Assembly (NCBI RefSeq): GCF_964213995.1
Contig: NW_027590119.1
Span: forward strand, 2,108,001-2,172,000
Direction: 5' to 3'
Origin: Mustelus asterias
Lineage: Eukaryota
DNA length: 64,000 nucleotides
The notes beneath the pieces are model-generated. The model did no database searches. It was given only the letters and a program-made list of their open reading frames with translations, and had not been told where the DNA came from. Position 1 is the stretch's first letter. The number at the start of each line of letters is the position of its first letter. This document shows positions 1 through 57,745 of this stretch, one piece after another. A program made the translations under genes and the position numbers.

Positions 1-469
1 AAAACAAGTTGACACAAGTCATCAGTGTCAGTACAGGATAGAAATTCAGAACAGACAATTCCAGTTTCTATGGAACATTCTTTCTCTCTCAATCCCCAAA
101 AGCTGTGAATCTCCATCCCACACACTCTCCCTCCATTCTCACTCTGCTGTATCTAATATTTACCCTTCCAATTCTCCTGAAGGTGCTGATTGAGGCTGAT
201 TGACAGATCCATGCTCACTCCTTCCTGTCCTTAACACAGAGAGCTGAAAATCTCCACGCAGGCTGCCAAACAGGTACATGTCTATCTGACCGGCCGAACA
301 ATGTGTGGAATATACCGACTGGATTCACTTCCTTACCATTCAGTTGCTGCAAGTCCCCAATTTCCTCCAGAATGAGAAAAGAAATGGAAAGGAGGAAACA
401 TTGATTTCCTCCCAGATGTTGTACAGAGGCGGAAGTTTCAATCATTGGCCAACTTCCGCATTGTGATGG

Positions 470-1040
470 CACAATATAACCGAGCCTGAATTAGCCAATA
501 GGAATAAGTCTGTTCCCATGTGACGTCCTGTGGTTCCAGTGCGCAGGCCCGGGCGCGCGCCCACGGGAGCCCCGCCCCCACCCATTGTTCCCCTCCCTCT
601 GCACCTCCTCGAGCCAAGGTTTCTAGGCAACCGGCTGGCGGCTCCGGCCAGAGCGAGAAGCCGCGCGGTGATCTCCCCCTCCCCCCTCTCTCTACGGCGG
701 CTGCTCCAAAAAGAGATCGAGAGCGACCGCTGGCGGCAGCCGCACTGCGCCTGCTCCGGACAGCTCGGCTCAGCAGCACTCTCTGCGCCTGCTCCGGACA
801 GCTCGGCTCAGCAGCGCTCTCTGCGGCTGCTCCGGACAGCTCGGCTCAGCAGCACTCTCTGCGCCTGCTCCGGACAGCTCGGCTCAGCAGCGCTCTCTGC
901 GCCTGCTCCGGACAGCTCGGCTCAGCAGCGCTCTCTGCGCCTGCTCCGGACAGCTCGGCTCAGCAGCGCTCTCTGCGCCTGCTCCGGACAGCTCGGCTCA
1001 GCAGCGCTCTCTGCGCCTGCGTGCTGGGCTGCCAGCTGAG
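470..1040. promoter_or_regulatory. CpG-island promoter, probably bidirectional between ZNF units
   Basis: High GC and CpG content, CCAAT at 496, TGACGT at 521; ZNF 5' sequence points left (1-330) and a ZNF pseudogene lies to the right. Confidence 0.6.
745..1020 (+). repeat. 38-bp GC-rich minisatellite, about 7.3 copies
   Basis: CTGCGCCTGCTCCGGACAGCTCGGCTCAGCAGC(A/G)CTCT at 745, 783, 821, 859, 897, 935, 973 and partially 1011. Confidence 0.95.
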
Positions 1041-1132
1041 GGAGTGGGGGAGGGGACTTTGCAAAATCTCTTCCCATCATTTTCTTCCAAGTCCCGCAGT
1101 TTGATTTGAAACAGAACAGCTTCTGTTTGTAG

Positions 1133-1668
1133 CTTCACCACAGACTCCAACTTCACACACAGACTCCAACTTCACACACAGACTCCAACTTCACACACAG
1201 ACTCCAACTTCACACACAGACTCCAACTTCACACACAGACTCAAACTTCACACAGACTCAAACTTCACCACAGACTCAAACTTCACCACAGACTCAAACT
1301 TCACCACAGACTCAAACTTCACCACAGACTCAAACTTCACCACAGACTCAAACTTCACACACAGACTCAAACTTCACCACAGACTCAAACTTCACCACAG
1401 ACTCAAACTTCACACACAGACTCAAACTTCACCACAGACTCAAACTTCACCACAGACTCAAACTTCACCACAGACTCCAACTTCACCACAGACTCAAACT
1501 TCACACACAGACTCAAACTTCACCACAGACTCAAACTTCACACACAGACTCAAACTTCACACACAGACTCAAACTTCACCACAGACTCAAACTTCACCAC
1601 AGACTCCAACTTCACCACAGACTCAAACTTCACACACAGACTCAAACTTCACACACAGACTCCAACTT
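1133..1668 (+). repeat. 18/19-bp minisatellite ACAGACTC(A/C)AACTTCAC(C/AC)
   Basis: Directly visible tandem array with interspersed unit variants. Confidence 0.95.
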
Positions 1669-2038
1669 CCTCCTCTGGACAACATCTGTGAGGAAAACAC
1701 TTTCTTTCTCCCCCTGGGAAATACAGAGACAGAGAAATTCTCTGGAACTGGAATTAGAGCCAAATATACTGAGGGGGAAATGTTTGTGATTTTGTGGAAC
1801 CTGTTTTTATTGTCCGAGCTTTTTAAAGTGTAATTTATCCTGTCTATTCAAATACTGTTTCTTAATGCATGATTCAGTGATGTTAATTTTAGATTAATTT
1901 TTAAAGTAAAATTTTTTTTAAAATGAAACATTGTCTTTTAGTTTATTCCATTGGGATTTGTGGGAATTTGTTTATTATAAGGTGACCATGAGGATCGTAA
2001 CAACATTGATATGTCTGGTGTTGTTATATGGTGCATAC

Positions 2039-2239
2039 GATGTGGAGATGCCGGTGTTGGACTGAGGTGGGCACAGTAAGAAGTCTCACAACACCTGGTT
2101 AAAGTCCAACGGGTTTATTTGGAATCACGAGCTTTCAGAGCGCTGCTCCTTCTCACCTGATGAAGGGGCAGCGCTGTGAAAGCTTGTGATTCCAAATAAA
2201 CCTGTTGGACTTTAACCTGGTGTTGTGAGACTTCTTACT
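2039..2239. mobile_element. Penelope-derived palindromic insertion, family A (mirror 48434-48634)
   Basis: Inverted arms (AGTAAGAAGTCTCACAACACC... / ...GGTGTTGTGAGACTTCTTACT); TSD ATATGGTGCATA at 2026-2037 and 2240-2251; hammerhead-like core at 2153-2189. Confidence 0.8.
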
Positions 2240-3329
2240 ATATGGTGCATATTAGGTATATTATTTATGGATTTGTATTACAGTTGATGTTGTTTAATTC
2301 CAGAATAGTATTGTAACTACTCTGTATATTTTCCAGTCAAAGAGTCAGCAGAGCACAAGATAAATCAATTCAGCAGCTTGAGTCCGTGCCCAGTCTCTGT
2401 CGGGGAATCCACTCAGTGCCATTTTTCCTCCATATCCCTGTTCCCCAGTACGTTTAATTCCTTCAAGTGCCCGACAAATTTTATTTTGAAATCACTGGTC
2501 GTCTCCACTTCCACCACTCTCATCGTCAGTGAGTTCCAGAACATGATTGCTTGCTCCCTAAGTCAAGTTCTTCCGCATCCATCTGTCATAGAATCATAGA
2601 AACCCTACAGTACAGAAAGAGGCCATTCGGCCCATCGAGTCTGCACCGACCACAATCCCACCCAGGCTCTACCCCCATATCCCTACATATTTTACCCACT
2701 AATCCCTCTAATCTATGCATCCCAGGACACTAAGGGGCAATTTTAACATGGCCAATCAACCTAACCCACACATCTTTGGACTTTAATCTCTAATCTCTAA
2801 TCATGTATCTCTAATCATGTAATAGAGTTCTGAATATTGCTTACATTTTTAGTCCACTAAATATGCAAATTTTTTATATGCTTAGACACAAGCCTGTGTG
2901 AAGATTTCGGGAATATGTGTCCTGTACATGAAACAGTCAGCACGGATCTGTCGATTAGGATGAATCAGCACCCTCAGGACAATGTCTATTTCAGGTCCAG
3001 CAAAGTGAGAATGGAGGGATGAAGGTTTACAAATTTTCAAGAATGAGAGGAAAGAATGTTCCACAGAAACTAGAATTGTCTGTTCTGAGTTTTTATCCTG
3101 GACTGACAGCAATGATTTTTGTGAATTTCTTTCACAGGCTATTAGAAGGGGAGAATTTACAGACACAAATCTCAACAAACATGACGTTAGGATCTGACAG
3201 AGTCACCCAATTATTCAGGATCTGAATACCATCGGCATTTGAAACTAGAATGGGAAATGTTTGTCTGTCCCTTCAAACTGTTTAAACATCAGTGTGACTG
3301 GAAAATCACTGAGACACATTCACTCGAGT

Positions 3330-4396
3330 GAGAGTATTCCAGTGAACTGACTGTGGAAAGAGCTTTAACCAGTTACACAGCCTGGAAAAGATTGAAGGAT
3401 TCACAGTGAGGAGAGGGACCATGTACGTGTTATCTGTGGGGTCAAACCTTCATCTGAACCTGGAGATGTACAAAGACACTCAGACCATGGAAATGTAGGG
3501 ACTGTGGGAAGGGATTCAATTGTCCCTCGAAGCTGGAAACCCTTCGATGCAGCCACACTGTGGAGACACCGTTCACCTGCTCTGAGTTTGGAAGGGGATT
3601 TCGTGATTCATCCACCCTGAGGAATCACCAGCGACTTCACATCAGGGAGAGGCCATTCACCTGCTCTGAGTGTGGGAAGAAATTCAGCGATTCGTCTGCC
3701 CTGCTGACACACCAGCGGGTTCACAATGGGAAGAGACCATTCACCTGTTGTGTGTGTGGAAAGGGATTCACTCAGTCATCTACCCTGCAGAACCACCAGC
3801 GATTTCACACGGGTGAGGGACTGTTCCCCTGCTCAGAGCGTGGGAAGGGATTCACTCACTCATCGCTCCCGCTGACAAACCAACGCATTCACACTGGGCC
3901 GAGGCCATTCATCTGCTCCGAGTGTGGGAAGGGATTCACTCAATTATCTAGTCTGCTGAGACCCAAACGATTACATACTGGGGAAAGGCCATTCATCTGA
4001 TGTGTGTGTGGGAAGTGACTCAGTGAATCATCCAGTCTGCTGGAATACTGAGGCTCCTCCCCCAATAAGGAACCTGTTCAATGCTCTGACTGTGGGAGCT
4101 GCTTTAAAACCTGAGCCTACCTGAGGGTCGACCAGCGCATTCACACTGAGGAGACCCCGTTCAGGCGCTCTCACTGTGCAAAGAGGTTTAGAACATCATC
4201 TGACCTACTGAAACATCAGGGAATTCACATTGAAGAGAGACCCTGATAATTCCACTCACTACCAGGTTGGAAGCTTCTGCCTGAAATTTTATTTTCCCTC
4301 AGTTTCCAAACTGAGACCATTCACCTGCTCAGTGTGTGGGAAAGGATTCACTTGTTCATCCAAGCTGCTGAGACACCATGGCAGTCACACCTATTA
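3330..4396 (+). pseudogene. C2H2 zinc-finger pseudogene
   Basis: Finger repeats with lost Cys/His (CSEF, CSER, NQRIH, PKRLH), an in-frame stop at 3998-4000 and frameshifts. Confidence 0.85.
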
Positions 4397-4519
4397 GTGT
4401 TCTTTCGGATGCTCTGACTGTGGCTGTTAATTATATCAATAGAGGTTAAGTTTATTCAGATGGAGGGCACTGATTAGATAGTTATAATGAGCAGGTACAA
4501 AGTGGGACTCACTAATATC

Positions 4520-5700
4520 AGAACATAAGAACATAAGAAATAGGAGCAGGAGTAGGCCATCTAGCCCCTCGAGCCTGCCCCGCCATTCAATAAGATCATG
4601 GCTGATCTGACGTGGATCAGTACCACTTACCCGCCTGATCCCCATAACCCTTAATTCCCTTACCGATCAGGAATCCATCCATCCGCGCTTTAAACATATT
4701 CAGCGAGGTAGCCTCCACCACCTCAGTGGGCAGAGAATTCCAGAGATTCACCACCCTCTGGGAGAAGAAGTTCCTCCTCAACTCTGTCTTAAACCGACCC
4801 CCCTTTATTTTGAGGCTGTGTCCTCTAGTTTTAACTTCCTTACTAAGTGGAAAGAATCTCTCCGCCTCCACCCTATCCAGCCCCCGCATTATCTTATAAG
4901 TCTCCATAAGATCCCCCCTCATCCTTCTAAACTCCAACGAGTACAAACCCAATCTCCTCAGCCTCTCCTCATAATCCAAACCCCTCATCTCCGGTATCAA
5001 CCTGGTGAACCTTCTCTGCACTCCCTCCAATGCCAATATATCCTTCCTCATATAAGGGGACCAATACTGCACACAGTATTCCAGCTGCGGCCTCACCAAT
5101 GCCCTGTACAGGTGCATCAAGACATCCCTGCTTTTATATTCTATCCCCCTCGCAATATAGGCCAACATCCCATTTGCCTTCTTGATCACCTGTTGTACCT
5201 GCAGACTGGGCTTTTGCGTCTCATGCACAAGGACCCCCAGGTCCCTTTGCACGGTAGCATGTTTTAATTTGTTTCCATTGAGATAGTAATCCCATTTGTT
5301 ATTATTTCCTCCAAAGTGTATAACCTCGCATTTATCAACGTTATACTCCATTTGCCATATCCTCGCCCACTCACTCAGCCTGTCCAAATCTCTCTGCAGA
5401 TCTTCTCCGTCCTCCACACGATTCACTTTTCCACTTATCTTTGTGTCGTCTGCAAACTTCGTTACCCTACACTCCGTCCCCTCCTCCAGATCATCTATAT
5501 AAATGGTAAACAGTTGCGGCCCGAGTACCGATCCCTGCGGCACGCCACTAGTTACCTTCCTCCAACCGGAAAAACACCCATTTATTCCGACTCTTTGCTT
5601 CCTGTCGGATAGCCAGTCCCCAATCCACTTTAACACACTACCCCCAACTCCGTGTGCCCTAATCTTCTTCAGCAGCCTTTTATGGGGCACCTTATCAAAC
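4520..5700 (-). mobile_element. Young 5'-truncated CR1/HER1-type LINE, present only in the left arm
   Basis: Uninterrupted 357-aa RT C-terminus (SGVPQGSVLGP, KFADD, RPQLEYC); 3' tail (TTCTTATG)n; the right arm has the empty site (ACTAATATAACTTGG, near 46330-46346). Confidence 0.93.
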
Positions 5701-5724
5701 GATAAATATAACTTGGAGTCAGAG

Positions 5725-6110
5725 TTGAACCTGTAATGTTTGATTCTGTGAACAAATCTAGACCAAATAAAGATTGACTCCGCCCCAAGGCTGTCAGGAT
5801 TATAACATGGTAACAGAAAATGCTTGTCTTATGGTGAAGGTTGGAAACTAAAAGAAAGTATATTTCAGACGGAAGCTGACAATCCCAGCAGCTTTTGTGA
5901 GAAATGACTGAAAGGCAGTGGGAATTGTCAGGGTCTGATTACCTGCTGATGCTCTCGGAGTCTGAACCATACAACCAGTGGAAGAATGAAGTGGCGATGT
6001 GGACACGGGTTACATCCCGATCAAGGAGGAAACAAGATCTGGCCTTGGCATTGTCACTTCCTAACACAAGGAAAATCAGCAACAAAGCATTTTCTGATCA
6101 GCCAAACTGC
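5725..6110 (+). mobile_element. LTR-retrotransposon remnant: LTR end, primer-binding site and gag N-terminus (mirror at 45960-46320)
   Basis: AATAAA at 5766, ...TATAACA end, then TGGTAACAGA at 5808 (resembles the tRNA-iMet PBS TGGTAGCAGA); short ORF with PYNQWKNEVAMWTRVT...LALALSLP. Confidence 0.55.
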
Positions 6111-8484
6111 AAGTTGATACCTGCACTGGCACGGATGATTCATGTAAAGAATTCACTTCAGGTGGTTGGAGGGTAGAATCCCTGTCAATTGGTCTACGGG
6201 AGAAATCCCAGATTCCCCTCTGTGCCGGGCGATCGCCCTCCTGCTTTAAAGGGATACAATTAGTTCCATTTTCAGTCATCAATTATCTGATTGTTCCATG
6301 AAAAGAATTGCTCGAAGCAACAAATTATTGGAGAAACCAGAAGAGGGTTCCTTCATGTGTAACGTTTGGACTGAAGGAGAAAAAACATCTTTTTCTTCGA
6401 TTTGTTTTGAAACACTGTTTGTGTGAATTTTTGCGATCCCGGTCAGGACTGTTAACGTTTGCAGAGAAATTCGAACACCCAGTGATTAACTGAAAGAATT
6501 ACATCACAAGATTCCACATTTTTAAACAAAAACAAACTTTACTAAAATTTAAAAAGACAACACTACAAATTGAATACTAGTCAATAAAGATTTATGATAT
6601 AAACCGAGTTCTATTTTTTTACCTCACCCCAAGAGTTTCTTTATACTTAATGATATCTTGAAGGTTCATTCACTTCTGTTCCTAGGACCATCCCAAAGGC
6701 ATGTCAAAGCTCTCCACAATTCACTTTAATTCTCCCCAGTACTCCAGATATTCTCCAAGCTCCAAGAGTTAATGGGAATCCATCCATTATCTTTTCACTA
6801 AACAAGCCTCCAATTTTCCTTTAAGCTCTCAAACTGTGGACTCCTCAGTCCAAACATGGGCTTCACTGCATTCTTGCTGAGGCATTTAAATGTGAGAAGC
6901 ACCCCTGGTTCCAACGGACCTCTAGGCTTCTAGTCCCACAGCTGGTTCACAGCTCCTGGTCCCACAACTGGTAGTTTCCAAGCTAACTGCAGACTGTCCA
7001 TTGGAACCAGGTCATTGATTGGAAAGGACTCAAAAGGTTACGGGGAAAAGGCAGGAGAATGGGATTGAGATTTATCAGCCATGATCGAATGGCACAGCAG
7101 ATTCGATGGGCCGAATAGCCTAATTCTGCTCCTATATCTTATGGTCTAATTCTAACCAAGGCTCCACCCTGAATCACATATCCCCATGGTAACAGAGACC
7201 AGGTGGAATATCTGACAGATTTAGCTTCAAAACTAAACCTTTTTTCCCGAGGTCTGCATGAAGAATTCACCGAACAAAAACAGTACAATAATTGTCAGTC
7301 CCAATGTCTCCAGCTAAAAGATCCAGCTGACCTTTTACAGTTCTTACCTCTCGAGTTTTGACTTCTTAAACCAACATGGGCCATGCTTTGTGACTGCGAA
7401 TTCCCTGAGGGTGTTTTCATCAGATTCTCAATCCAGGTTTTCCATTTTTTAAAAGCAATTCTTGCAACTAATTCATATTTCTAAAACATAGGAATTATAA
7501 AATTAGATTTTTGTAACAAAAACAGGAAGAAATGAAAACGTATCACCTTCATAATATCCCATTTAGAATATTACAATATACAACATGCTGTATATCTTAA
7601 CAACAGCCATGATCTTATTGAATGGTGGAGCAGGCTCGAAGGGCCAAATGGCCAACTCCTGTTCCGAAGTCCACTGTTTTCCTATGTTGATCTATCTTAT
7701 AACCTGCAACAGACATAATAATCCCTCCATTGTCCACTTCACATTCACAAGTCCAGCTTGGTAACAGCACACTGCTGGGTTCCATGTCCAGGAATCTCAG
7801 TCCGCTGAAGATGGAAATTACTGTTTGCAGTCTTTTCTGAAAGTTTTCTTCTTTCAGTAATTATAGTCCAAAGTTCCTCCTGCAAAAGGAGAGTCTTCAC
7901 TGCTGTTCATTTGTGAATTTTCAAGTTCTATTTTGAAAACAGTCTGTACAGAGTTCACATTTTGAAATTTATTTTCTTCCATGTTTGTAGTTCCTCCATT
8001 GTTTAAATCCAGAGAGAATATTCCACTCAATTCCACATTGAAACTGTCTTCTCCTTGCTCAGTTATAGCTGATTCCTTTATTGTCCAGGACAATATATTC
8101 ACAATATCTTTAAAACAGAAATTAAACATTCCCATTTGATTTCAGACAGTAACATATTCTGTTCATTTGTTCTTTATTGTCAATGTCAGGCTGGTGTTGT
8201 TCTCCTTGGAGCAAAGGAGGTTGAGGGGAGATTTGATAGAGGTGGACAAGATTCTGACAGGTTTAGATAAGGTGGACAAAGAAAAGCTGTTCCCATTAGC
8301 TGAAGGGACAAGGACGAGGGGGACACAGATTTCTTGTTTTGGGTCAGAGATGCAAGCGGGGAGGGGAGATGTGAGGAAGAATATTCTGATGCAGCGAATG
8401 GTAATGACCTGAAACTCGCTGCCTACGAGGGTGGAGGAAGTGGAGACAATAAACAATTACAAAGGAAATTGGATGAGCATTTGG

Positions 8485-9110
8485 GCTAATGCCCTCCACA
8501 CCAGGCAACATCCTGGTAAATATTTTCCGTACCCTCTCCAAAGCCTCCACATCCTTCTGGTAGTGTGGTGACCAGAATTGAACACTAGATTCCAAGTGCG
8601 GTTTAACTCAGGTTCTATAAAGCTGCAACATGACTTGCCAATTTTTAAACTCAATGCCCCGGCCGATGAAGGCAAGCATGCCGTATGCCTTCTTGACTAT
8701 CTTCCCCACCTGCATTGCCACTTTCAATGACCTGTGTACCTGTACACCCAGATCCCTCTGCCTATCAATACTCTGAAGGGTTCTGCCATTTACTGTATAT
8801 TTCCCATCTGTATTAGACCTTCCAAAATGCATTACCTCACATTTATCCAGATTAAACTTCATCTGCCATCTCTTCGCCCAAGTCTCCAACTGATCTATAT
8901 CCTGCTGTATCCTCTGCCGGTCCCCATCGCTATCCGCAATTCCACCAACCTTTGTGCCGCCCACAAACTTACCAATCAAACCAGTTACATTTTCCTCCAA
9001 ATCATTTATATATATTACAAACATCAAAAGTCCCAGCACTGATCCCTGAGGAACGTCACTTGTCACAGCCCTCCATTCAGAAATGTACCTTTGCACTGCC
9101 AACCTCTGTT
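8485..9110 (-). mobile_element. CR1-type LINE fragment (counterpart 41720-42755, + strand, with intact 3' end)
   Basis: VPQGSVLG, KCEVMHFG and KAYGMLAFI motifs. Confidence 0.85.
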
Positions 9111-9353
9111 TTCTTCTGACTAAATATCTCGAAACTTCCTAACACCTTGTCACTCTGTGATCCTTGTGACATTTGAAACCAGGTATTCACAAAAAGACTC
9201 AAAGAGCATCAGCCCACTGGAGGCTGAGACCAGCCAGTCCAGCACAAAGAAACCCTCTGACCCTTCCCATTGACCAACTGTGAGAATGAACAAAATGCAG
9301 TCCTGGATGCAACTGAGAGCAGAAACAATAACAGCAGAATCCTACCCCGGGAA

Positions 9354-10280
9354 TCACTCGTGAACTTGTTGATGTCTCAGCAGCTGGGATGAAACTCTGA
9401 ATCCCTTCCCACACTGAGAGCAGGTGAACGGCCTCTCCCCAGTGTGAACTCGCTGGTGTGTCTGTAGGTCAGATGAGTTTGTGAATCCCTTCCCACACTG
9501 AGAGCAGATGAATGGTCTCTCCCCAGTGTGGACTCGCTGGTGTATCCTCAGGTGGGATGACCGAATGAATCCCTTCCCACACTGAGAGCAGGTGAACGGT
9601 CTCTCCCCAGTGTGAACTCGCTGGTGTCTCTGCAGGTGGGATGATCGAGTGAATCCCTCCCCACATTGAGAGCAGGTAAATGGTCTCTCCCCAGTGTGAA
9701 CTCGCTGGTGTGACTGCAGGTTGGATGACCAAGTGAATCCCTCCCCACACTGAGAGCAGGTGAATGGCCTCTCCCCAGTGTGAACTCGCTGGTGTGTCTG
9801 CAGGCTGGATAACTGAGTGAATCCCTTCCCACACTGAGAGCAGATGAACGGCCTCTCTCCAGTGTGAACTCGCTGGTGTCTCTGCAGGCTGGATAACTCA
9901 ATGAATCCCTTCCCACACTGAGAGCAGGTGAACGGCCTCTCCCCAGTGTGAACTCGCTGGTGTGTCTGCAGACTGGATAACTGAGTGAATCCCTTCCCAC
10001 ACTGAGAGCAGGTGAATGGCCTCTCCCCAGTGTGAACTCGCTGGTGTGTCCGCAGGTGGGATAACCGAGTAAATCCCTTCCCACACTGAGAGCAGGTGTA
10101 TGGCCTCTCCCCAGTGTGAACTCGCTGGTGTGTCCGTAAGCTGGATAACTGATTAAATCCCTTCTCACACTGAGAGCAGGTGAATGGCCTCTCCCCAGTG
10201 TGGCTGCGCCGATGAACTTCCAGCTCTGATGGGGCTCTGTATCTCTTCCCACAGTCCACACATTTCCATGGTTTCTCCAT
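9354..10280 (-). CDS. C2H2 zinc-finger protein, 11 tandem fingers, no KRAB or other effector domain in the ORF
   Basis: Begins MEKPWKC at the ATG at 10280; eleven CxxC-12-HxxxH units with TGERPF linkers. Confidence 0.88.
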
Positions 10281-10994
10281 GATGCAGGTGTCCTTGCCTC
10301 TCTCTTGGGTGGACAATTAGTTGAAACTTCGTCCACACACAGAACAAGATTACAGTCTCGACCCGCTGTGAATGGTGTGATATTTATTCAGACTGTGTAA
10401 CTGGTTAAAGCTCTTTAGTCAGTGCAGTGGAACACACTCACTCAAGTGTGGCAGAGTGTTGATGCTTTTTCACTCACACTGACATTTCAAATCTTTTCAA
10501 ATCGACAGACTGGACAATCATTTCTCCTCCTGGATTCAAAGTTCGATGATATTGAGATCCCAAGGGATATGACTCTGTCACGTCTAGACGTGATGTTTGA
10601 GATTTCGGCCTGTGATTCCTCAAGATCCTGTAAAATGAGTTTCCAAAAGTCATCAGTGTCAGTGCAGGATAGAAATTCAGAACAGACAATTTCTATGGAA
10701 CATTCTTTCCTCTCTCATTCCCCAAAAGCTGTAAATCTCCATCCCACACACTCTCTCCCCATTCTCAGCAGGTCTGGCAGCATCTGTATGGAGAGAAAAG
10801 AACTGATGTTTCAGAGCTTTGACAAAGGGTCATCTTGACAAGAAACATCAGCTCTTTTCTCTCCTTACAAATGCTGCTAGAACTGCTGAGATTTTCCAGC
10901 ATTTTCTCTCTTGGTTTCAGATTCCAGCATCCGCAGTAATTTGCTTTTATAAGGCTGCAGATACCTCCTCCCAAGTAACATGCGTGTGCCCAAG

Positions 10995-12028
10995 ACATCA
11001 TCACTTGTTTCCCTTATTTCTTTAGCACCCATGGTGCTCTCCGCAGTAAACACAGAGGAGAAGTATTCATTAAAAATCTTACCCATCTCCTGTGGCTCCA
11101 CACACAGATGGCCATACTGATTTTTAAGGGGATCTATTCTCTCTCTAGCCACCCTTTTACTCTTAATATAGCTATAGAACCTCTTGGAATTTTCTTTAAT
11201 CTTACCTGCCAGATCCATATCATACCCTCTTTTTGTCCTCCTGATTTCCCTCCTCAGTATTTTCTTACACTTTTTATAGTCAGAGTGATTCACTTGTCCC
11301 CGATTGCCGAAACCCAATGTATGCTTCCTTCTTTTACCTGACCAGAGCCTCAATGTCCCTTGTCTGCCAGAGATCCTTAAATTTACCATTATTTCCCTTC
11401 ACCTTAACAGGAATATACTGCCCCTGGACTCTTGATATCACACTTTTAAAACCTCCCATTTGCCAGTCATTCCTTTCCCTTCAAACAAACTCACCGAATC
11501 GACATCTGCTCGATCCTGCCTAATGCCCACAAAAGTGGCCCTGCTCCAGTTTAGGGCCTTGACCTGTGGACCTGTCCTATTTTTTTCCAGAACTATTTTG
11601 AAACTATTGGTGCTCCCAATAGTGCTCCCTGACTGACACTTCAGTCACTTGCTCCACCTCGTTTCTTAACTGTCTAATAGAAAGTGAGTCCAGGAATTGA
11701 TGATGAAAAATAAGGAGCTGGGAGATGAATTGAACAAGTATTTTGCCTCGGTCTTCACAATAGAGGATACAGTTAAAACTCAGAAACAGCTGGAAATCAG
11801 AAAACAGAAGTGTGGGATGAACTCTGAAAAAGCACAATTCCCAGGGAAGTGGTCCTCAGCAAACTGTTGGAGCTGTGGGCTGATGAGTCCTCGGGTCCTG
11901 CTGGGCTTCATTCTCGGGTCCTGCTGGGCTTCATTCTCGGGTCCTGCTGGGCTTCATTCTCGGGTCCTGCTGGGCTTCATTCTCGGGTCTGAACAGAGGG
12001 AGATAGTTGATGTTGTTCAATTTTCTTA
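10995..12028. mobile_element. Degraded CR1-type LINE fragments in both orientations (mirrored at 39291-40300)
   Basis: IKENSKRFYSYIKSKR...NEYFSSVFT on the minus strand; ELNKYFASVFT on the plus strand. Confidence 0.75.
11891..11989 (+). repeat. 23-bp tandem repeat, about 4 copies (single copy in the right arm near 39331-39360)
   Basis: TCGGGTCCTGCTGGGCTTCATTC repeated. Confidence 0.9.
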
Positions 12029-12029
12029 A

Positions 12030-12300
12030 CCGTCCGTCGCCATTACCCTCACTGCGCATGCTTCAGGTCCCGCCCCTCATTCACTCCGATTGGTTGGAGG
12101 ACCAGCCGCTCCCGCTCGGTCATCCAGCCCCGCCCCCTCTTCCTATTGGCCTGGAGCTGCCGTCAATCAGTCCCGGGGCATTGTGACGTGGAGCATGCGC
12201 AGTGTCATTGCTGTCCTTGGCGCTTGTTTGTCCCGGAGAAGCGGAGTCAGCGTTAGGCGGTGGCTGGGAGGATTTGGAAACACTTTGTGGATCCGCAAAC
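12030..12300. promoter_or_regulatory. CpG-rich promoter-like region (mirrored at 36270-36520)
   Basis: NRF1-like TGCGCATGC/GCATGCGCA, GC boxes CCGCCCC, inverted CCAAT (ATTGG), TGACGT. Confidence 0.55.
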
Positions 12301-17500: not shown

Positions 17501-17677
17501 TTAAGCTTCCAGGACCCCCTGCCCACTTTCTGGTTTTCCTCCAGCTGACAGTCTGCCAGCAGGAGGCAGTGGTCAGAGAAGAACACCGGCTTGACGTCGG
17601 TGGACCTGACCGTGAGCGCGCGGGATGCAAACATGAAGTCGATCCTGGAGCGGACAGACCCGTCTGGCCGCGACCCC
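14559..17677 (-). mobile_element. Tx1-clade non-LTR retrotransposon, 5'-truncated ORF2 with one frameshift
   Basis: APE C-terminus (SRIDF...FFSDH), RT (KTPGSDGLP, WRPISLLNVDYK, SLDQEKAFD, RQGCPLS, YMDD) and a C-terminal zinc motif (CSRSGCGGDETVAHLLVEC); frameshift near 16525; AATAAA and poly(A) at the 3' end. Confidence 0.93.
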
Positions 17678-21155: not shown

Positions 21156-21229
21156 CTCAAAACCTCACTCAACATGAACAGGATAAACAGGAGTCCCAAG
21201 ATAAACAGGAGTTGGGACGGTGAGAATAG

Positions 21230-41477: not shown

Positions 41478-41719
41478 TGACAGGGGTTGGATTCTGCTGT
41501 TATTGTTTCTGCTCTCAATTACATCCAGGACTGCATTTTGTTCATTCTCACAGTTGGTCAATGGGGAGGGTCAGAGGGTTTCTTTCTGCTGGACTGGCCG
41601 GTCTCAGCCTCCAGGGCGCTGATGCTCTTTGAGTCTTTTTGCGAATACCTGGTTTCAAATGTCACGAGGATCACAGAGTGACAGGGTGTTAGGAAGTTTA
41701 GAGATATTTAGTCAGAAGA

Positions 41720-42755: not shown

Positions 42756-42764
42756 ATTTTATAG

Positions 42765-43293
42765 AGAATTGAATAGAATCCCTACAGTACAGAAGGAGGC
42801 CATTCGGCCCATCGAGTCTGTACCGACCACAATCCCACCCACGCCCTACTCCCGCAAGTTCACACATTTGCTAATCCCCCTGACACTAGGATCGGCATGG
42901 GGCGCTAAGGGGCGGCACGGTAGCACAGTGGTTAGCACTGCTGCTTCACAGCACCAGGGTCCCGGGTTCGATTCCCGGCTCAGGTCACTGTCTGTGTGGA
43001 GTTTGCACATTCTCCTCGTGTCTGCGTGGGTTTCCTCCGGGTGCTCCGGTTTCCTCCCACAGTCCAAAGATGTGCGGGTTAGGTTGATTGGCCAGGTTAA
43101 AAATTGCCCCTTAGAGTCCTGAGATGCGTAGATTAGTGGGATTAGCGGGTAAATATGTGGGGGTAGGGCCTGGGTGGGATTGTGGTCGGTGCAGACTCGA
43201 TGGGCCGAATGGCCTCCTTCTGCACTGTAGGGTTTCTATGATTCTATGATCAATTTAGTATGGCCAATCAACCTAACCTGCACATCTTTGGAC
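42765..43293. mobile_element. Full-length + strand HE1-type SINE (about 42911-43250) nested in a minus-strand SINE
   Basis: The minus-strand SINE stops near 42910 and resumes at 43251 (CAATTTAGTATGGCCAATCAACC). Confidence 0.8.
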
Positions 43294-46200: not shown

Positions 46201-46462
46201 TTTCCAACCTTCACCATGAGACAAGCATTTTCTGTTACCATGTTATAATCCTGACAGCCTTGGGGTGGAGTCAATCTTTATTTGGTACAGATTTGTTCAC
46301 AGAATCAAACATTACAGGTTCAACTCTGACTCCAAGTTATATTAGTGAGTCCCACTTTTTACCTGCTCATTATAACTATCTAATCAGTGCCCTCCATCTG
46401 AATAAACTTAACCTCTATTGATATAATTAACAGCCACAGTCAGAGCATCCGAAAGATCACTA

Positions 46463-47550
46463 ATAGGTGTGACTGCCATGGTGTGTCAGCAGCTTGGGTG
46501 AACAAGTGAATCCTTTCTCACACACTGAGCAGGTGAATGGTCTCAGTTTGGAAACAAAGGGAAAATAAAATTTCAGGCAGAAGCTTCCAATCTGGTAGGT
46601 TTTATGAGAAATCGCTGAAAGTGAGTGGGAATTATCAGGGTCTCTCCCCAGTGTGAATTCCCTGATGTTTCAGTAGGTCAGATGATGTTCTAAACCTCTT
46701 TGCACAGTGAGAGCGCCTGAACGGGGTCTCCTCAGTGTGAATGCGCTGGTCGACCCTCAGGTAGGCTCAGGTTTTAAAGCAGCTCCCACAGTCAGAGCAT
46801 TGAACAGGTTTCTTATTGGGGGAGGTGCCTCAGTATTCCAGCAGACTGGATGATTGACTGAGTCACTTCCCACACACACATCAGATGAATGGCCTTTCCC
46901 CAGTGTGTAATCGTTTGTGTCTCAGCAGACTAGATAATTGAGTGAATCCCTTCCAACACTCGGAGCAGATGAATGGCCTCGGCCCAGTGTGAATGCGTTG
47001 GTTTGTCAGCGGGAGGGATGAGCGAGTGAATCCCTTCCCACGCTCTGAGCAGGGGAACAGTCCCTCACCCGTGTGAAATCGCTGGTGATTCTGCAGGGTA
47101 GATGACTGAGTGAATCCCTTTCCACACACACAACAGGTGAATGGTCTCTCCCCATTGTGAACCCGCTGGTGTGTCAGCAGGGCAGACGAATCGCTGAATT
47201 TCTTCCCACACTCAGAGCAGGTGAATGGCCTCTCCCTGATGTGAAGTCGCTGGTAATTCCTCAGGGTGGATGAATCACGAAATCCCCTTCCAAACTCAGA
47301 TCAGGTGAACGGTGTCTCCACAGTGAGGCTGCATCGAAGGGTTTCCAGCTTCGAGGGACAATTGAATCCCTTCCCACAGTCCCTACATTTCCACGGTCTG
47401 AGTGTCTTTGTACATCTCCAGGTTCAGATGAAGGTTTGACCCCACAGATAACACATACATGGTCTCTCTCCTCACTGTGAATCCTTCAATCTTTTCCAGG
47501 CTGTGTAACTGGTTAAAGCTCTTTCCACAGTCAGTTCACTGGAATACTCT
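46463..47550 (-). pseudogene. C2H2 zinc-finger pseudogene (inverted copy of 3330-4396)
   Basis: Reverse complement of the left-arm pseudogene, sharing the same stop and most lesions. Confidence 0.85.
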
Positions 47551-49002
47551 CACTCGAGTGTCTGTGTCTCAGTGATTTTCCAGTCACACTGATGTTTAAA
47601 CAGTTTGAAGGAACAGACAAACATTTTCCATTCTAGTTTCAAATGCCGATGGTATTCAGATCCTGAATAATTGGGTGACTCTGTCAGATCCTAACGTCAT
47701 GTTTGTTGAGATTTGTGTCCGTAAATTCTCCCCTTCTAATAGCCTGTGAAAGAAATTCACAAAAATCATTGCTGCCAGTCCAGGATAAAAACTCAGAACA
47801 GACAATTCTAGTTTCTGTGGAACATTCTTTCCTCTCATTCTTGAAAATTTGTAAATCTCCATCCCAAACACTCTCCCTCCATTCTCACTTTGCTGGACCT
47901 GAAATAGACATTGTCCTGAGGGTGCTGATTCATCCTAATCGACAGATCCGTGCTGACTGTTTCATGTACAGGACACATATTCCTGAAATCTTCACACAGG
48001 CTTGTGTCTAAGCATATCAAAAATTTGCATATTTAGTGAAGTAAAAATGTATGCAATATTCAGCACTCTATTACATGATTAGAGATACAGATGGGTGCGG
48101 AAGAACTTGACTTAGGGAGCAAGCAATCATGTTCTGGAACTCACTGACGATGGGAATGGTGGAAGTGGAGACGACCAGTGATTTCAAAATAAAATTGGTC
48201 GGGCACTTGAAGGAATTAAACATACTGGGGAACAGGGATAGCGAGGAAAAATGGCACTGAGTGGATTCCCCGACAGAGACTTGGCACGGACTCAAGCTGC
48301 TGAATTGATTTATCTTGTGCTCTGCTGACTCTTTGACTGGAAAATATACAGTGTAGTTACAATACTATTCTGGAATTAAACAACATCAACTGTAATACAA
48401 ATCCATAAATAACATACCTATTATGCACCATATAGTAAGAAGTCTCACAACACCAGGTTAAAGTCCAACAGGTTTATTAGGAATCACAAGCTTTCAGAGT
48501 GCTGCCCCTTCATCAGGTGAGAAGGAGCAGCGCTTTGAAAGCTCGTGATTCCAAATAAACCCATTGGACTTTAACCAGGTGTTGTGAGACTTCTTACTGG
48601 GCCCACCCCAGTCCAATACCGGCATCTCCACATCATATGCACCATATAACAACACCAGACATATCAATGTTGTTACGATCCTCATGGTCACCTTATAATA
48701 AACAAATTCCCACAAATCCCAATGGAATAAACTGAAAGACAATGTTTCATTTTTTTTAAATTTTACTTTAAAAATTAATCTAAAATTAACATCACTGAAT
48801 CATGCATTAAGAAACAGTATTTGAATAGACAAGATAAATTACACTTTAAAAGTTCAGACAATAAAAACAGGTTCCACAAAATCACAAACATTTCCCCCTC
48901 ACTATATTTAGCTCTAATTCCAGTTCCAGAGAATTTCTCTGTCTCTGTATTTCCCAGAGGGAGAAAGAAAGTGTTTTCCTCACAGATGTTGGCCAGAGGA
49001 GG

Positions 49003-49516
49003 AAGTTTGAGTCTGTGTGTGAAGTTTGAGCCTGTGGTGAAGTTTGAGTCTGTGGTGAAGTTTGAGTCTGTGGTGAAGTTTGAGTCTGTGGTGAAGTTTG
49101 AGTCTGTGTGTGAAGTTTGAGTCTGTGGTGAAGTTTGAGTCTGTGTGTGAAGTTTGAGTCTGTGTGTGAAGTTTGAGTCTGGTGAAGTTTGAGTCTGTGG
49201 TGAAGTTTGAGTCTGTGGTGAAGTTTGAGTCTGTGGTGAAGTTTGAGTCTGTGGTGAAGTTTGAGTCTGTGGTGAAGTTTGAGTCTGTGGTGAAGTTTGA
49301 GTCTGTGGTGAAGTTTGAGTCTGTGTGTGAAGTTTGAGTCTGTGTGTGAAGTTTGAGTCTGTGTGTGAAGTTTGAGTCTGTGTGTGAAGTTTGAGTCTGT
49401 GGTGAAGTTTGAGTCTGTGGTGAAGTTTGAGTCTGTGGTGAAGTTTGAGTCTGTGGTGAAGTTTGAGTCTGTGGTGAAGTTTGAGTCTGTGGTGAAGTTT
49501 GAGTCTGTGGTGAAGC
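49003..49516 (-). repeat. Inverted copy of the 18/19-bp minisatellite
   Basis: (GTGAAGTTTGAGTCTGTG)n. Confidence 0.95.
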
Positions 49517-49594
49517 TAAAGACAGAAGCTGTTCTGTTTCAAATCAAACTGCGGGACTTGGAAGAAAATGATGGAAAGAGATTTTGCAATCCCC

Positions 49595-53020: not shown

Positions 53021-53479
53021 ATGAAGATACTCGTCATTTGGATTGTGTGGGGGGCATTTCTAACAGGTATTTCTGGGCATCACGTTAGTTTTCTCATTTC
53101 CAAAACTGGGGTGGAATCTTACTGTTGATTACACATCACTCTTTTCTTTATCTATTTGAACATATTTTCCAGGTCTGACCCATGGAGATTCTGTCACTCA
53201 GCCGCTGTCCTCAGATGTTAAGCCAGAAGGAGACGTGGTGACATTAAACTGCAACTATGATACTGCAGAAACCATCTATAATTTATACTGGTATCGACAG
53301 CATCCAGACTCCCAGCCCGAGTACATACTGTGGAAGCACTCGGGGGGTAATGAAGATAAAGCAGATTTTGCTAAAATCCGTTTCTCGACTGACCTCAAAA
53401 TCCCGAAGAAATCCATCAGTTTGACTATCTCGGATCTGCAGTTGTCTGACGCGGCCGTGTATTACTGCGCTTTCAGACT
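53021..53479 (+). CDS. TCR alpha/delta-type V segment V3 (leader exon 53021-53066, V exon 53173-53479); intact
   Basis: Leader MKILVIWIVWGAFLT-G followed by GT donor; TTTTCCAG acceptor. V exon GLTHGDSVTQ...TLNCNY...YWYRQHP...SDAAVYYCAFR, followed by a 23-RSS. Confidence 0.95.
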
Positions 53480-53518
53480 CACAATGATGGAAAGCAGCCT
53501 GAGTCCTGTACAAAAACT
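53480..53518 (+). other. 23-RSS of V3
   Basis: CACAATG 53480-53486, 23-nt spacer, ACAAAAACT 53510-53518. Confidence 0.92.
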
Positions 53519-54673: not shown

Positions 54674-56299
54674 GGTTTCGGACTGGATCCGCTCTATCTC
54701 TGTATCAGTGTGTGCTCCATCGCACGGAAATACACGGCAGGGACCTGGGTGTGCAAGTCCACAGATCTTTGAAGGTGACGTCACAGGTGGAGAAGGTGGT
54801 GAAGAAGGCATATGGCATGCTTGCCTTTATAGGACGGGGCATAGAGTATAAGAGTTGGGGTCTGATGTTGCAGATGTATAGAACGTTGGTTCGGCCGCAT
54901 TTGGAATACTGCGTCCAGTTCTGGTCGCCACACTACCAGAAAGACGTGGAGGCTTTGGAGAGAGTACAGAGGAGGTTTATCAGGATGTTGCCTGGTATGG
55001 AGGGGCTTGGTTATGAGGAGAGATTGGGGAAACTGGGGTTGTTCTCCTTGGAAAGACGGAGGATGAGGGGAGACTTAATAGAGGTGTATAAAATTATGAA
55101 AGGCATAGATAGGGTGAACGGTGGGAAGCTTTTCCCGGGTCGGTGGTGACGTTCACGAGGGGTCATAGGTTCAAGGTGAAGGGGGGGGGGGAGGTTTAAC
55201 ACAGATATCAGAAGGACATATTTCACACAGAGGGTCGTGGGGGCCTGGAATGTGTTGCCGGGCAAGGTGGTGGAGGCGGACACACTGGGAACGTTTAAGA
55301 CTTATCTAGACAGCTATATGAACGGAGTGGGAATGGAGGGATACAAAAGAGTGGTCTAGTCTGGACCAGGGAGCGGCGCGGGCTAATTGTTCCTTGTTTC
55401 TCGTTTCAAGGCTTCATTCTATGATCATCTTGCTGGTGCCAGTACAGAGCGAGACTGCGGATAGTTGGGAACCTGTCTCGGGGGCAGGGAATTCATATCG
55501 TGTTCGTGGAAGTGGAAATGACTAGGGTTGGGAAGCATTTCCCGATCAGGGCCATTGTGATCTCCTGGACTCGTTTCGATCGCCTCAGGGGGTCGGAGAG
55601 GAATTTCCCAGATTTTTTTCCCCATATTGGCCCTGGGGTTTTTCACTCTGGGTTTTCGCCTCTCCCTGGAGATCACATGGTCTGGAATGGGGGGGTAGGG
55701 GTGAGTTAATAGGTTGTAATGAACAAAGCATCGTAGCTGTGAGGGACAGCTCGGTGGATAGGATTTTGGTATGTCGGTAGGCTGGAAAATTGGGCGGGGA
55801 TCCTGGATTCAGGATTCAATCCTGGACCGGGGAGCGGCGCGGGCTTGGAGGGCCGAAGGGCCTGTTCCTGTGCTGTATTGTTCTTTGTTCTTTGTTCTTA
55901 TCCGACAGAAGAGCCCCCGCGAGATATAAAGGAACTGTTTCATTTCCCTTCTGCAAATCTGCAGAAAACCTCCGTTTGGGGACCTTTCGTAACCCCCTAA
56001 GCTATATTTCTTCAGCAAATGTCTCGGAGCTTCCCCGGAATACTGCATGTACCAGGGTAGAGTTGGGGTAGTGTAAGTTATCAAGTAACGGCAGTCCAGT
56101 CCACACTGTCCTTCCCGAATTGTTAATTTGAAATGAGCCTGGAACACTGAAGTTTTGCCACTCATTCCTGTCACACAAATACAGATTGGCTCAAAAGTCA
56201 GGGTTTAAAAATAACCACTGGATGACATGGTTACCATTTAATAATGGACCCGCCGGGCAGCAAGATCATTATAATCAGTAAGGAGCATGGAGAACACAT
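54674..56299 (-). pseudogene. TCR V pseudogene V4, split by a CR1 insertion (54741-55898)
   Basis: V exon from 56167 reads GMSGKTSVFQ...LDCRY...PWYMQYSGEAPRHLL, then a frameshift, then RRFSADLQKGNETVPLYLAGALLSD. Removing the LINE continues it as TAVYFRAME (Cys104->Arg). Degenerate RSS CACACTG-23-TCCGAAACC at 54712-54674. Candidate leader MCSPCSLLIIMILLP at 56299-56254 with a GC donor. Confidence 0.85.
54741..55898 (+). mobile_element. 5'-truncated CR1-type LINE inserted in FR3 of V4
   Basis: RDLGVQVHRSLK...RPHLEYCVQFWSP; tail (TTCTTTG)n; removing it rejoins the V frame. Confidence 0.9.
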
Positions 56300-57353
56300 G
56301 GTTTCCGTGTATACATCTCGATGCAAAGTAACAAAATGCTCTAATTCTGCTGATGATTCCAATCTAGTGTAAAGGGTAGCCCCTGTTATAATCTGGGTTT
56401 ATTTTTTGAGAAACTGAGGGGCATTTCCCTGAGACAGGATTGGCTACTCTGCCGGAACTGATGGATATTCCCCGCCAATAAATGAGAGCTGTAAAGAATC
56501 GCATTTTCTGGTTCCTTCTGTGTCTTATGCGACTTTCCTCATAACTCTGTCTCATTGCTTCCGTCTCTCTGTTATACCAACCTCTCATTTTTTGTAAACC
56601 TCCTTATCGCTATCAAATGACTGGAAATTAATTCAAATAATTCAAGCGGTGACAACAGAGTTTGACAAACTCGACAAACAAAGCTACCCGAAACCACCAG
56701 CAGGTGGCGTGACTTACCGTCGTTGCGGTGTTTTCACATTGCTACCTGAAAATCAATGTGTCCTTTCTATTTGTCTCATTTAATGAATTCGTCATTAGTA
56801 GAGACCATGAGACTGGCGGTGTAAATAAGAAGTAGAAAGCTAAAGTTGGCGACATACATTTAAGGTCACGTGTGTTCTCTGCTCTTGGATTGTTTGGAAA
56901 TAGATAATGTTCACCAGATTTAAGCAGTGATCCTTCCTTGTTGATCAGCCCCACTACTCGCCATCAGCAATTGCTGAGGCGATTCATTCCGCTGCTGTCT
57001 GCACCCGGGCAAAGACGGTGAAAGCAAAAGTAGTGGACCAGACCATGGCTTCATTTCGCGTTTTATCGACAGTCATCAAACTCCACAAAGAACAAAGTGA
57101 TAATCAGGTCATCGATTTTAGTGATTTTGATTGGAGGGCTGATGGAAAGTGACATCTGTCAGAAAACCTGTCATTCTGTCATCTAAGTTGCCATTTCCGC
57201 TCTTCGGTCGCACAGAAAAACATTCAAGTTCTCATTTCAGGTTTTGGCTCATTTAGTTCCACTGTTGAGGTGGAGGGTGGGTGATGCAGGCTTTATAAAC
57301 CTATTACTAAGGGTCCGAAGCTGTGTTGCTGCTGTGTTCTGTATTCTGATATT

Positions 57354-57706
57354 ATGCATCATTTTCTCTTTTTGACATCGATATTCATTCTTCTCATTCA
57401 GGCCAGTGAGGAAATGGAGGCAGTGTTTCAGGATCCACCGAGCATCAGAGTGAGTTACGGAGACAGTGTGAAGCTAAACTGCAATTGTTCGACATCACAT
57501 ACTTCTACTGCTTTCTTCTGGTATATTCAGCACCCAGAGAAACACCCTCAATATCTATTGGAAAAAAGGAGTACTGGAAAAAATGTGACTGCCTTTGGGA
57601 AGCGGCTGCTTTATGCTACCTTAGATAACACAGCAAGAACTGTTCCTTTAAGCATTCACTATGCGCAGTTCTCTGACAGTGCGGTGTATTACTGTGTACT
57701 GGGACA
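57354..57706 (+). CDS. TCR alpha/delta-type V segment V5 with leader and V apparently in one exon
   Basis: Continuous ORF MHHFLFLTSIFILLIQASEEMEAVFQDP...KLNCNC...FWYIQHP...SDSAVYYCVLG; TATA-like TTTATAAA at 57292; followed by an RSS. Confidence 0.88.
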
Positions 57707-57745
57707 CACAGCGTTACCAGGTCAGTAGAGACCCGTACAAAAAAT
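57707..57745 (+). other. 23-RSS of V5
   Basis: CACAGCG 57707-57713, 23-nt spacer, ACAAAAAAT 57737-57745. Confidence 0.88.

Follow-up and report, generated by a model that had tools for sequence, protein, structure and literature searches.

The window, a 64,000-nucleotide stretch of Mustelus asterias DNA, carries four V segments with 23-bp-spacer recombination signal sequences (RSS) and one V pseudogene, interspersed with C2H2 zinc finger (ZNF) genes. A scan for heptamer-23-nonamer motifs with no more than three mismatches recovered 23-RSS sites at 21117 (+), 21916 (-, perfect), 53480 (+), and 57707 (+), compared with a mean of 0.37 and a maximum of two in 30 dinucleotide shuffles of the window. 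A V-type YxC motif combined with an RSS occurred four times in the window and in 0 of the 30 shuffles, and the ORFs of V1, V2, V3, and V5 matched the Pfam V-set profile with E values of 7e-7 to 2e-15. When V3 was searched against PDB, the top single-domain matches were mostly TCR alpha/delta chains, multi-domain antibody constructs ranking higher through summed domain scores. A representative-protein search with V3 returned mostly concatenated gene models, and none of the eight close matches inspected had J or C signatures.

V1 (20224 to 21155, +) comprises a leader exon (20224 to 20275), a V exon (20810 to 21116), and a 23-RSS (21117 to 21155). V2 (21878 to 22435, -) has a leader exon at 22435 to 22378, a V exon at 22189 to 21917, and a perfect 23-RSS at 21916 to 21878, and is intact, as is V3 (53021 to 53518, +), with its leader exon (53021 to 53066), 106-bp intron, V exon (53173 to 53479), and 23-RSS (53480 to 53518). 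In all three, a phase-1 GT-AG intron splits the leader. V2, V3, and V5 retain both cysteines and the FR2 tryptophan; V1 has Arg at the conserved Trp position, which is kept in five of eight other V1 copies checked (10 rows, C110 and C173 each being read twice). V5 (57354 to 57745, +) has a V frame open to 57706 and a 23-RSS with three mismatches at 57707 to 57745. A search for a phase-1 leader exon of V5 found none, revealing instead an in-frame hydrophobic stretch from the ATG at 57354. Since this ATG is lost in a 72%-identical paralog on C119, the reading of an intronless leader was set aside as unproven, and V5 function is doubtful. V4 (54699 to 56204, -) is a pseudogene with a frameshift, interrupted by a CR1 insertion of 1.18 kb (about 54741 to 55921) that is absent from its copies on C109 and C71, and a small V relic was detected by tblastn at 56917 to 57000 (-, E 1e-7). 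Given the FR2 Arg of V1, the missing split leader of V5, and the loss of V4, V2 and V3 remain as the clearly intact segments of the window. A copy of V2 with identical protein lies on C119, 69 kb behind a delta C exon.

Between the V islands (22.4 to 53.0 kb), ORF and Pfam zf-C2H2 analyses identified two open ZNFs, one with 10 fingers and paralogs at 87 to 99% (29303 to 30181, -) and one with six (40935 to 41477, +), and a broken, frameshifted ZNF pseudogene (46531 to 47300, -). The original observation of RSS-bearing V segments at 20 to 22 and 53 to 58 kb with a ZNF block between them was therefore confirmed by the RSS scan, Pfam, and the fingers in ORFs. The further ZNF unit noted to the left of the V segments was also found, consisting of an open frame with 11 fingers (9354 to 10316, -) and a frameshifted pseudogene with fingers in two frames (3458 to 4326, +). 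Tandem fingers with TGERP-type linkers in open frame identify the window ZNFs as tandem C2H2 (Kruppel-type); no KRAB match was found in the ORFs scanned. They belong to a large near-identical family, with 7003 candidate paralogs in the assembly, 40 of them scored. Self-BLAST blocks (93 to 97% identity) placed the left ZNF unit in one arm (1052 to 12544, unstranded) of an inverted segmental duplication whose partner lies at 36002 to 49594, the left arm carrying the ZNF pseudogene, the open ZNF, and a CpG stretch.

Several CpG-rich stretches, also noted before in the ZNF-bearing DNA, were recovered by a CpG window scan, and those flanking the ZNFs are putative promoters. They lie at 401 to 1100 (+; left ZNF unit, 75% alike to 38.1 to 38.6 kb), at 11901 to 12350 (-; a 97% copy of 36002 to 36518), and, for a divergent ZNF pair, at 36201 to 37150 and 38301 to 38600 (unstranded). 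Those at 33951 to 34300 and 42801 to 43150 fall in a dispersed short repeat, and two further stretches lie in an L1-type retrotransposon (14844 to 17880, -), the ORF2 of which is in two frames (Pfam RVT_1, zf-RVT). A single-exon rhodopsin-family GPCR gene (61536 to 62561, -; Pfam 7tm_1), 97% identical to a copy on C71, moves together with the V3 to V5 block.

Much of the window recurs elsewhere in the assembly. Collinear stretches were found for 10.9 to 27.3 kb on C110 (98 to 99%), 14.6 to 27.3 kb on C173 (99.3%), 19.7 to 38.3 kb on C106 (94 to 99%), 44 to 57 kb on C109 (96 to 98%), and 52.3 to 63.6 kb on C71 (16.055 to 16.067 Mb; 92 to 97%). Every V/ZNF junction was found again on another scaffold, which argues for a segmental-duplication mosaic and not the misjoin that had been named as a possible refutation. 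Apart from those on C71, all of the 150 V3 matches scored fall on contigs with numbers of C87 or higher, about 64 in all (hand count).

The window's own scaffold, C87 (2.96 Mb), carries IgH clusters, among them a VH-D-D-J cluster at 2.263 to 2.265 Mb, so that IgH miniclusters are interspersed with TCR V segments. C1-set exons occur on both C87 and C71. No C-alpha was found on C87 (all 57 candidates in the assembly were scored, the two clear hits lying elsewhere), nor any C-delta among the 19 delta C exon-1 matches of the assembly, nor any TCR J among the first 100 listed, by contig, of 204 J-pattern matches. The absence of J-C that was to mark the V segments as orphons therefore holds for C87; however, this scaffold looks unplaced, so the absence decides neither whether the window's own copies are orphons nor whether joining would delete or invert.

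Two TCR-alpha J-C loci were found in the assembly, on C71 and C546. A Pfam PF09291 profile search for alpha C gave no match, the search's controls also being silent. On C546, a V cluster (32 to 63 kb) is followed by four single-frame ZNFs of 9 to 14 fingers (68 to 94 kb), 134 J-alpha, and C-alpha. A 200-N gap lies between the ZNFs and J, and sequence to its left already resembles the J-proximal region of C71. That C546 is an allele of the C71 alpha locus was rejected, since the C domains are 71% and the J regions 75 to 90% identical. On the chromosome-scale C71, about 23 ZNF units of at least four fingers occupy the 330 kb before 30 J-alpha, a region free of V and of N; V segments are separated from J-alpha by megabases, a same-strand V3/V5 copy lying 2.3 Mb upstream. 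With ZNFs between V and J-alpha on both C546 and C71, bystander deletion is predicted, and on C546 every deletional join that starts in the V cluster would take ZNFs with it. The claim that V(D)J joining costs ZNF genes is thus partly supported: the arrangement at both alpha loci predicts such loss, and on the window's own scaffold no TCR J or C was found (J among the matches listed). Neither alpha locus has a delta D-J-C directly upstream of J-alpha; the nearest delta C on C71 is 6.1 Mb from the J-alpha cluster, and C546 has none.

Three of the 19 TCR-delta C exon-1 matches are on C71, the total probably being inflated by haplotype duplicates. In four of six delta modules fetched (C71:7.1, C71:12.25, C106, and C110), we found a full set, namely D with 12/23 RSS, J with 12-RSS, a C exon with CLxxxFxP, and TM with Arg and Lys; no D was detected in the modules of C71:11.0 and C119. 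Gene models join NAR-TCR V domains to the delta C of these modules. A PDB search with the delta C exon returned antibodies only and was not diagnostic, the D-segment pattern search returned V ends and repeats only, and a C1-set search, taken up by Ig and MHC exons, failed to reveal delta C. The evidence leaves evenly poised the proposal that the nested alpha/delta locus has been broken up, leaving at least ten antibody-like D-J-C miniclusters for TCR-delta and two diverged J-C loci for TCR-alpha, all spread through tens of Mb of shared V segments, IgM clusters, and ZNF arrays.

To what type the V segments belong was also addressed in contigs from sequencing runs, for which depth gives no copy number. 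Run X23, tentatively taken as RNA, comes from a related species and contains a V1-family piece that continues into a J-alpha-like end and a V3-family piece that continues into a D-delta-containing junction with an 11-nt D-delta match (one contig each, 92 to 93% identical, depth about 3, D and J matched by eye). These contigs support the predicted TCR alpha/delta type, and whale-shark gene model P0021 joins a V3-like V to J and delta C. Two contigs of run X4 lack the V3 intron between its GT..AG borders, and a V3-family contig of the same run passes unrearranged through the RSS. No rearranged junction occurred among the loose ends listed for the closest-matching runs X1, X2, and X4, and neither splice nor junction of V2 among the matches listed in the runs.

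Taken together, we consider it likely that the window is pieced together, as a mosaic, from segmental duplicates of a shark antigen-receptor complex where C2H2 ZNF arrays, IgH miniclusters, and GPCR genes are found in alternation with islands of TCR alpha/delta V segments, and that V(D)J joining there would delete or invert ZNFs as passive bystanders. Under this model, C87 would belong to the complex of the C71 chromosome, and RAG would act in cis, bringing window-type 23-RSS together with a 12-RSS at D-delta or J-alpha; joining of same-strand V segments would excise the intervening DNA, and that of opposite-strand V segments would invert it. ZNF loss may then matter little because near-identical, highly redundant paralogs are numerous and the other allele stays intact. 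Rather unlikely, by comparison, is that the V segments are orphons carried with ZNF blocks beyond the reach of D/J-C, the ZNF block never being deleted or inverted. The lack of TCR J or C on C87 (J among the matches listed) is in keeping with orphons, as are the defects of V1, V4, and V5 and the 100 kb to the left of the window, a pure ZNF array without V. Yet V2 and V3 are intact with good RSS, C87 shares its V, IgH, ZNF, and GPCR modules with C71, where V-to-J-alpha distances reach megabases, and one C87 end matches C110, a carrier of delta D-J-C, at 99.6% over 3.2 kb.

That the interleaving is functional, with ZNF promoters holding V chromatin open and clonal ZNF loss altering T-cell behavior, is improbable. 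ZNF blocks between V and J-alpha in both alpha loci agree with such a role, and the unrearranged V3-family contig of run X4 fits germline transcription. However, the CpG observed/expected ratio is higher in V fields (0.56 to 0.64) than in ZNF arrays (0.35 to 0.46) whether or not ZNFs are adjacent, and the distance to the nearest CpG stretch is about 8 kb for V1 and 14 kb for V3, leaving the proposed opening of V chromatin by ZNF promoters unsupported. Equally unsupported was a functional role of ZNF loss, which the numerous paralogs should buffer, and the neighbors of one V block vary between its copies as duplication accidents would give. Slightly less probable still is an assembly artifact, with a misjoin behind the mosaic and uncollapsed haplotypes behind the many delta C and the second alpha locus. 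Most copies do sit on small, apparently unplaced scaffolds, several match scores are identical in twos and threes, and the delta modules of C106 and C71:7.1 Mb are 98.3% alike, but no N occurs in positions 1 to 58123, the V/ZNF junctions recur, and diploidy halves the count at most. Moreover, three delta modules on one chromosome-scale sequence are 93.5 to 96.3% alike with different neighbors, protein identity to a second delta lineage is only 81%, and the alpha loci differ at 29% of C-domain residues and in J number (30 versus 134).

The bystander mosaic that we favor resembles human IGL, where ZNF280A, ZNF280B, PRAME, and GGTLC2 lie between V segments and are deleted when a distal V joins J (PMC9282919). 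Unlike IGL, the shark field is TCR alpha/delta, its passengers are dozens of redundant ZNF paralogs, IgH clusters, and GPCRs, its V segments occur in either orientation, and the ZNFs of C546 and C71 are located between V and J-alpha. According to the available part of PMC2275272, TRAV1 likewise lies within an unrelated multigene family, the olfactory-receptor genes of human, mouse, and opossum, though this concerns one or two distal V segments and here the pattern is repeated across the whole V field. The same part of that source describes opossum TCR-mu, a delta-related receptor repeated as eight entire clusters with C2H2 ZNFs as neighbors; unlike TCR-mu, which is a chain type of its own, the shark modules are TCR-delta using the shared V pool and NAR-TCR cassettes.

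In the available portions of Flajnik et al. 2025 (PMC12227049), the elasmobranch antigen-receptor complex similarly has TCR alpha/delta V segments among IgH miniclusters over megabases, in both orientations and with NAR-TCR cassettes, and according to Table S1, white shark TRAV are scattered between IgM clusters across about 9 Mb, facing either way. The words "zinc" and "ZNF" are absent from its text and supplements. The paper treats TCR alpha/delta as a translocon and lists one delta C beside one alpha C in stingray and catshark. In contrast, we count 19 delta C exons in the present genome, and neither of its two alpha J-C loci has delta directly upstream. Of the canonical TRA/TRD locus, as far as the accessible text of PMC10322711 sets it out, the shark shares the 23-RSS of a common V pool, the 12/23 RSS of D, the 12-RSS of J, and the C-exon signatures of alpha (CLxTD(x)F) and delta (CLxxxFxP); however, neither alpha locus has the nested order 5'-trdc-(traj)n-trac-3', and two alpha C and 19 delta C exon-1 matches, probably including haplotype copies, replace one of each. 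In the available part of PMC12698447, the newt also has delta unhooked from alpha and two alpha loci, but on different chromosomes, whereas here alpha and delta share C71, un-nested. The listings from our literature searches contained no description of ZNF interleaving or multi-copy delta C in sharks, though an earlier multi-delta-C report may exist.

Bystander ZNF loss, being known in kind from human IGL, appears of modest interest alone, and the layout of the delta and alpha loci weighs more. Published accounts treat TCR loci as translocons, those of sharks included; delta lies nested within alpha, and alpha joining thereby removes it. If many delta D-J-C units and two un-nested alpha loci are real, the multicluster layout known from shark antibodies can extend to a T-cell receptor and alpha rearrangement need no longer delete delta. 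Some other mechanism would then have to keep alpha-beta and gamma-delta receptors, and the several delta loci, mutually exclusive, and each T-cell clone would excise or flip its own megabase-scale set of ZNF and IgM genes. Such a layout would also allow receptor exclusion and very long-range RAG pairing to be tested in a basal jawed vertebrate. Near-identical germline V copies may also confound shark TCR "mutation" calls, a caveat raised in PMC5931798 too.

The original observation that TCR alpha/delta-type V segments (V1-V5) alternate in the window with C2H2 zinc-finger (ZNF) genes was borne out, as judged from recombination signal (RSS), Pfam, leader and ZNF-frame evidence. Four V segments ended in an RSS with a 23-bp spacer, namely V1 (+, 21117), V2 (-, 21916, a perfect signal), V3 (+, 53480) and V5 (+, 57707), and each matched Pfam V-set; shuffled sequence held 0.37 such RSS sites on average, and a V motif together with an RSS occurred in 0 of 30 shuffles. 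The leading single-domain PDB matches of V3 were mostly TCR alpha/delta chains. Phase-1 leader exons were present in V1, V2 and V3, with Arg at the FR2 Trp position of V1; V2 and V3 are the clearly intact V segments. V4 was a pseudogene with a frameshifted reading, interrupted by a CR1 element that is absent from sister copies. A search for a canonical leader in V5 (57354-57706) found none; an in-frame hydrophobic stretch began at an ATG where the split leader is expected and was kept in 12 of 12 close copies, the ATG being gone in a 72% paralog. Of three ZNFs between V2 and V3, two had open frames, with 10 and 6 fingers, and one was frameshifted; an open 11-finger ZNF and a second frameshifted ZNF were found to the left of the V segments. 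This left ZNF unit was an inverted copy of 36.0-49.6 kb (93-97% alike). An 18-bp-type tandem repeat was present in both inverted-duplication arms (1133-1669 and 49002-49515), and an L1/Tx1-type retrotransposon with a frameshifted ORF2 (14844-17880) lay within a few kb of a CpG stretch belonging to a ZNF.

An assembly misjoin was considered as the source of the interleaving and ruled out, there being no N ahead of window position 58124 and V/ZNF junctions recurring on other scaffolds of the same genome. Copies of window 10.9-27.3 kb (C110, 98-99%), 14.6-27.3 kb (C173, 99.3%), 44-57 kb (C109, 96-98%), 19.7-38.3 kb (C106, 94-99%) and 52.3-63.6 kb (C71, 92-97%) mean that every V/ZNF junction is found elsewhere, with further neighbours differing. 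The interleaving is the result of repeated segmental duplication. The window occupies C87:2,108,001-2,172,000, and this scaffold (2.96 Mb in an assembly of 3.68 Gb and 5313 sequences) was read as unplaced because it sits in the length-sorted tail. The best 150 of 1922 V3 candidates, on about 64 contigs by hand count, all fell on the 20.4-Mb C71 (6.5-17.4 Mb) or on contigs C87 and above; the 40 relatives scored for the ZNF at 29 kb, out of 7003 candidates, were also confined to C71 or contigs C87 and above. The 100 kb left of the window comprised a ZNF array only (20 finger clusters, zero V), and the 100 kb to its right held TCR V in both orientations and a complete IgH V-D-D-J cluster (C87:2,263,389-2,264,611, 91 kb right of the window), followed by C1-set exons at 2,277-2,279 kb. 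These surroundings match the shark antigen-receptor complex (AgRC) as described in Flajnik et al. 2025, where TCR V exons of white shark are dispersed between IgH clusters across about 9 Mb (PMC12227049). Zinc fingers are unmentioned in the AgRC paper.

A J-C region to one side of the window had been presumed; J, alpha C and delta C searches recovered none on C87 among the matches listed, and J-C was instead present on C71, C546 and other scaffolds. Alpha-type J were found by a J-pattern search on C71 (30 J at 18.37-18.42 Mb, C-alpha at 18.419-18.432 Mb) and C546 (137-242 kb, 134 J and its own C-alpha). These two alpha C genes, and no others, were returned by both DNA search (best 40 of 167 candidates) and protein search (57 of 57 candidates scored), the closest named protein to one being from Mustelus asterias (99%). 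We rejected the reading of the two loci as alleles: their C domains are 71% identical and hence paralogs. At neither locus was a delta module directly upstream. A short tandem repeat of ~12 kb (C71:18.420-18.432 Mb) filled the C71 C-alpha intron before the transmembrane exon, the C546 equivalent being <2 kb. A V1-like block (83%) lay on the same strand at C71:19.399 Mb, ~1 Mb downstream of C-alpha, so that V occur on both sides of this locus.

Additional small J clusters recovered with a wider J pattern were delta modules. Their plan combines a V part, either IgH-like or a NAR-TCR cassette, with a D carrying 12/23 RSS, a few J, a C exon and a transmembrane exon with Arg and Lys. The C exon bears CLxxxFxP, given as the delta C-exon signature in PMC10322711. 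The complete set of parts was found in four of the six modules fetched; a D segment was sought in all six and not detected in two. Delta C exon 1 gave 19 matches (19 of 19 candidates, 89-100%), three on C71 and 16 on further scaffolds; some of the 19 are probably haplotype duplicates. The C71 modules (7.10-7.14, 11.02-11.05 and 12.24-12.27 Mb, with C exons at 7.14, 11.04 and 12.27 Mb) were 93.5-96.3% alike with open frames and differing neighbours, and the C106 module was 98.3% alike to that at C71:7.1 Mb. The main delta C lineage was 90-97% identical to its closest named proteins, from Mustelus asterias; a second (81% protein identity) brings the total to at least two, and alpha and delta C domains were separated with full support in a tree. 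At C119:550-577 kb, a NAR-TCR V and its supporting V were separated by ~300 bp from the first J in their own delta J-C; this is a self-contained NAR-TCR minicluster, in which a D was sought and not detected.

This apparent alpha/delta architecture, which would be unusual, is provisional, with probable haplotype duplicates among the 19. Multi-copy delta modules and two un-nested alpha loci differ from the translocon described for sharks (PMC12227049), and the canonical trdc-traj-trac order, as set out in PMC10322711, is not followed. Our search of the shark literature, which covered key papers incompletely, did not find multi-copy delta with un-nested alpha described. The nearest published parallels are newts, with alpha and delta separated and two alpha loci (PMC12698447), and, for the delta modules, marsupial TCR-mu clusters (PMC2275272).

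The proposal that V(D)J joining deletes or inverts ZNF genes gained partial support. On C546, a V cluster at 32-63 kb in both orientations, including V1- and V2-family members, came first; the stretch at 68-94 kb after it contained four ZNFs with 9-14 fingers, each in a single frame, and J-alpha lay beyond them. Between these ZNFs and J-alpha is a gap of 200 N at 129.5 kb, but the DNA to its left already resembles the C71 J-proximal region. On C71, the 330 kb preceding J-alpha held about 23 ZNF units with at least four fingers (13 single-frame), zero V and zero N; the window's V3-V5-GPCR block has a copy on the same strand, 2.3 Mb upstream of J-alpha. Under the 12/23 rule, a same-strand V excises the intervening DNA and an opposite-strand V inverts it, and joining would excise or invert the ZNF DNA accordingly; V orientation in the fetched loci was 26 plus versus 20 minus. 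ZNF deletion is thus strongly predicted where ZNFs lie between V and J-alpha, but at locus level rather than for the window copies, since C87 has no cis J-C. On C106 and C119, V1/V2 sister copies lay ~70 kb behind delta C with the minus-strand V2 facing the module, and these V2 copies could join by inversion only, with no ZNF crossed. C110 carries the left half of the window at 99% identity, and a delta D-J-C on the same strand follows ~925 kb downstream. The predicted loss is the same in kind as the passive loss of ZNF280A, ZNF280B, PRAME and GGTLC2 at the human lambda locus (PMC9282919); ZNFs carried as passengers between V segments thus add a new case to an already known bystander effect. 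V among ZNFs also resemble mammalian TRAV1 among olfactory-receptor genes, as reported in PMC2275272. A single-exon rhodopsin-type GPCR lay at window 61536-62561, and similar GPCR genes, which would likewise be passengers of joining, recur within V fields.

Sequencing-run contigs support use of the V1 and V3 families in alpha and delta chains, a statement about families and not the window copies. In run X23, from a related species and possibly RNA, a V3-like contig departed from the window where the V coding sequence stops, and its continuation shared 11 nt with the C106 D segment; a V1-like contig finished in J-alpha-like sequence similar to J segments of C546. Each junction was a single contig with a depth of about 3 and was matched by eye. 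Run X4 gave two contigs that skipped the V3 leader intron, and another V3 contig passed unrearranged through the RSS, as a germline transcript or DNA would. No junction was seen for V2 among the rows listed, and those listed for the runs that matched most closely showed no junction of any family.

ZNF promoters had also been proposed to keep V chromatin open. In every region compared, the CpG observed/expected ratio was higher in V fields (0.56-0.64) than in ZNF arrays (0.35-0.46), which makes CpG richness a property of the V fields themselves. V-bearing DNA of the window (19.6-23.5 kb and 50-64 kb) had a ratio near 0.6, and the J cluster of C546 one of 0.33. The high V-field ratio perhaps reflects lower germline methylation. 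Copies of one V block had varying neighbours and close ZNF paralogs were many; a selected function of the interleaving, such as the proposed chromatin effect, appears improbable.
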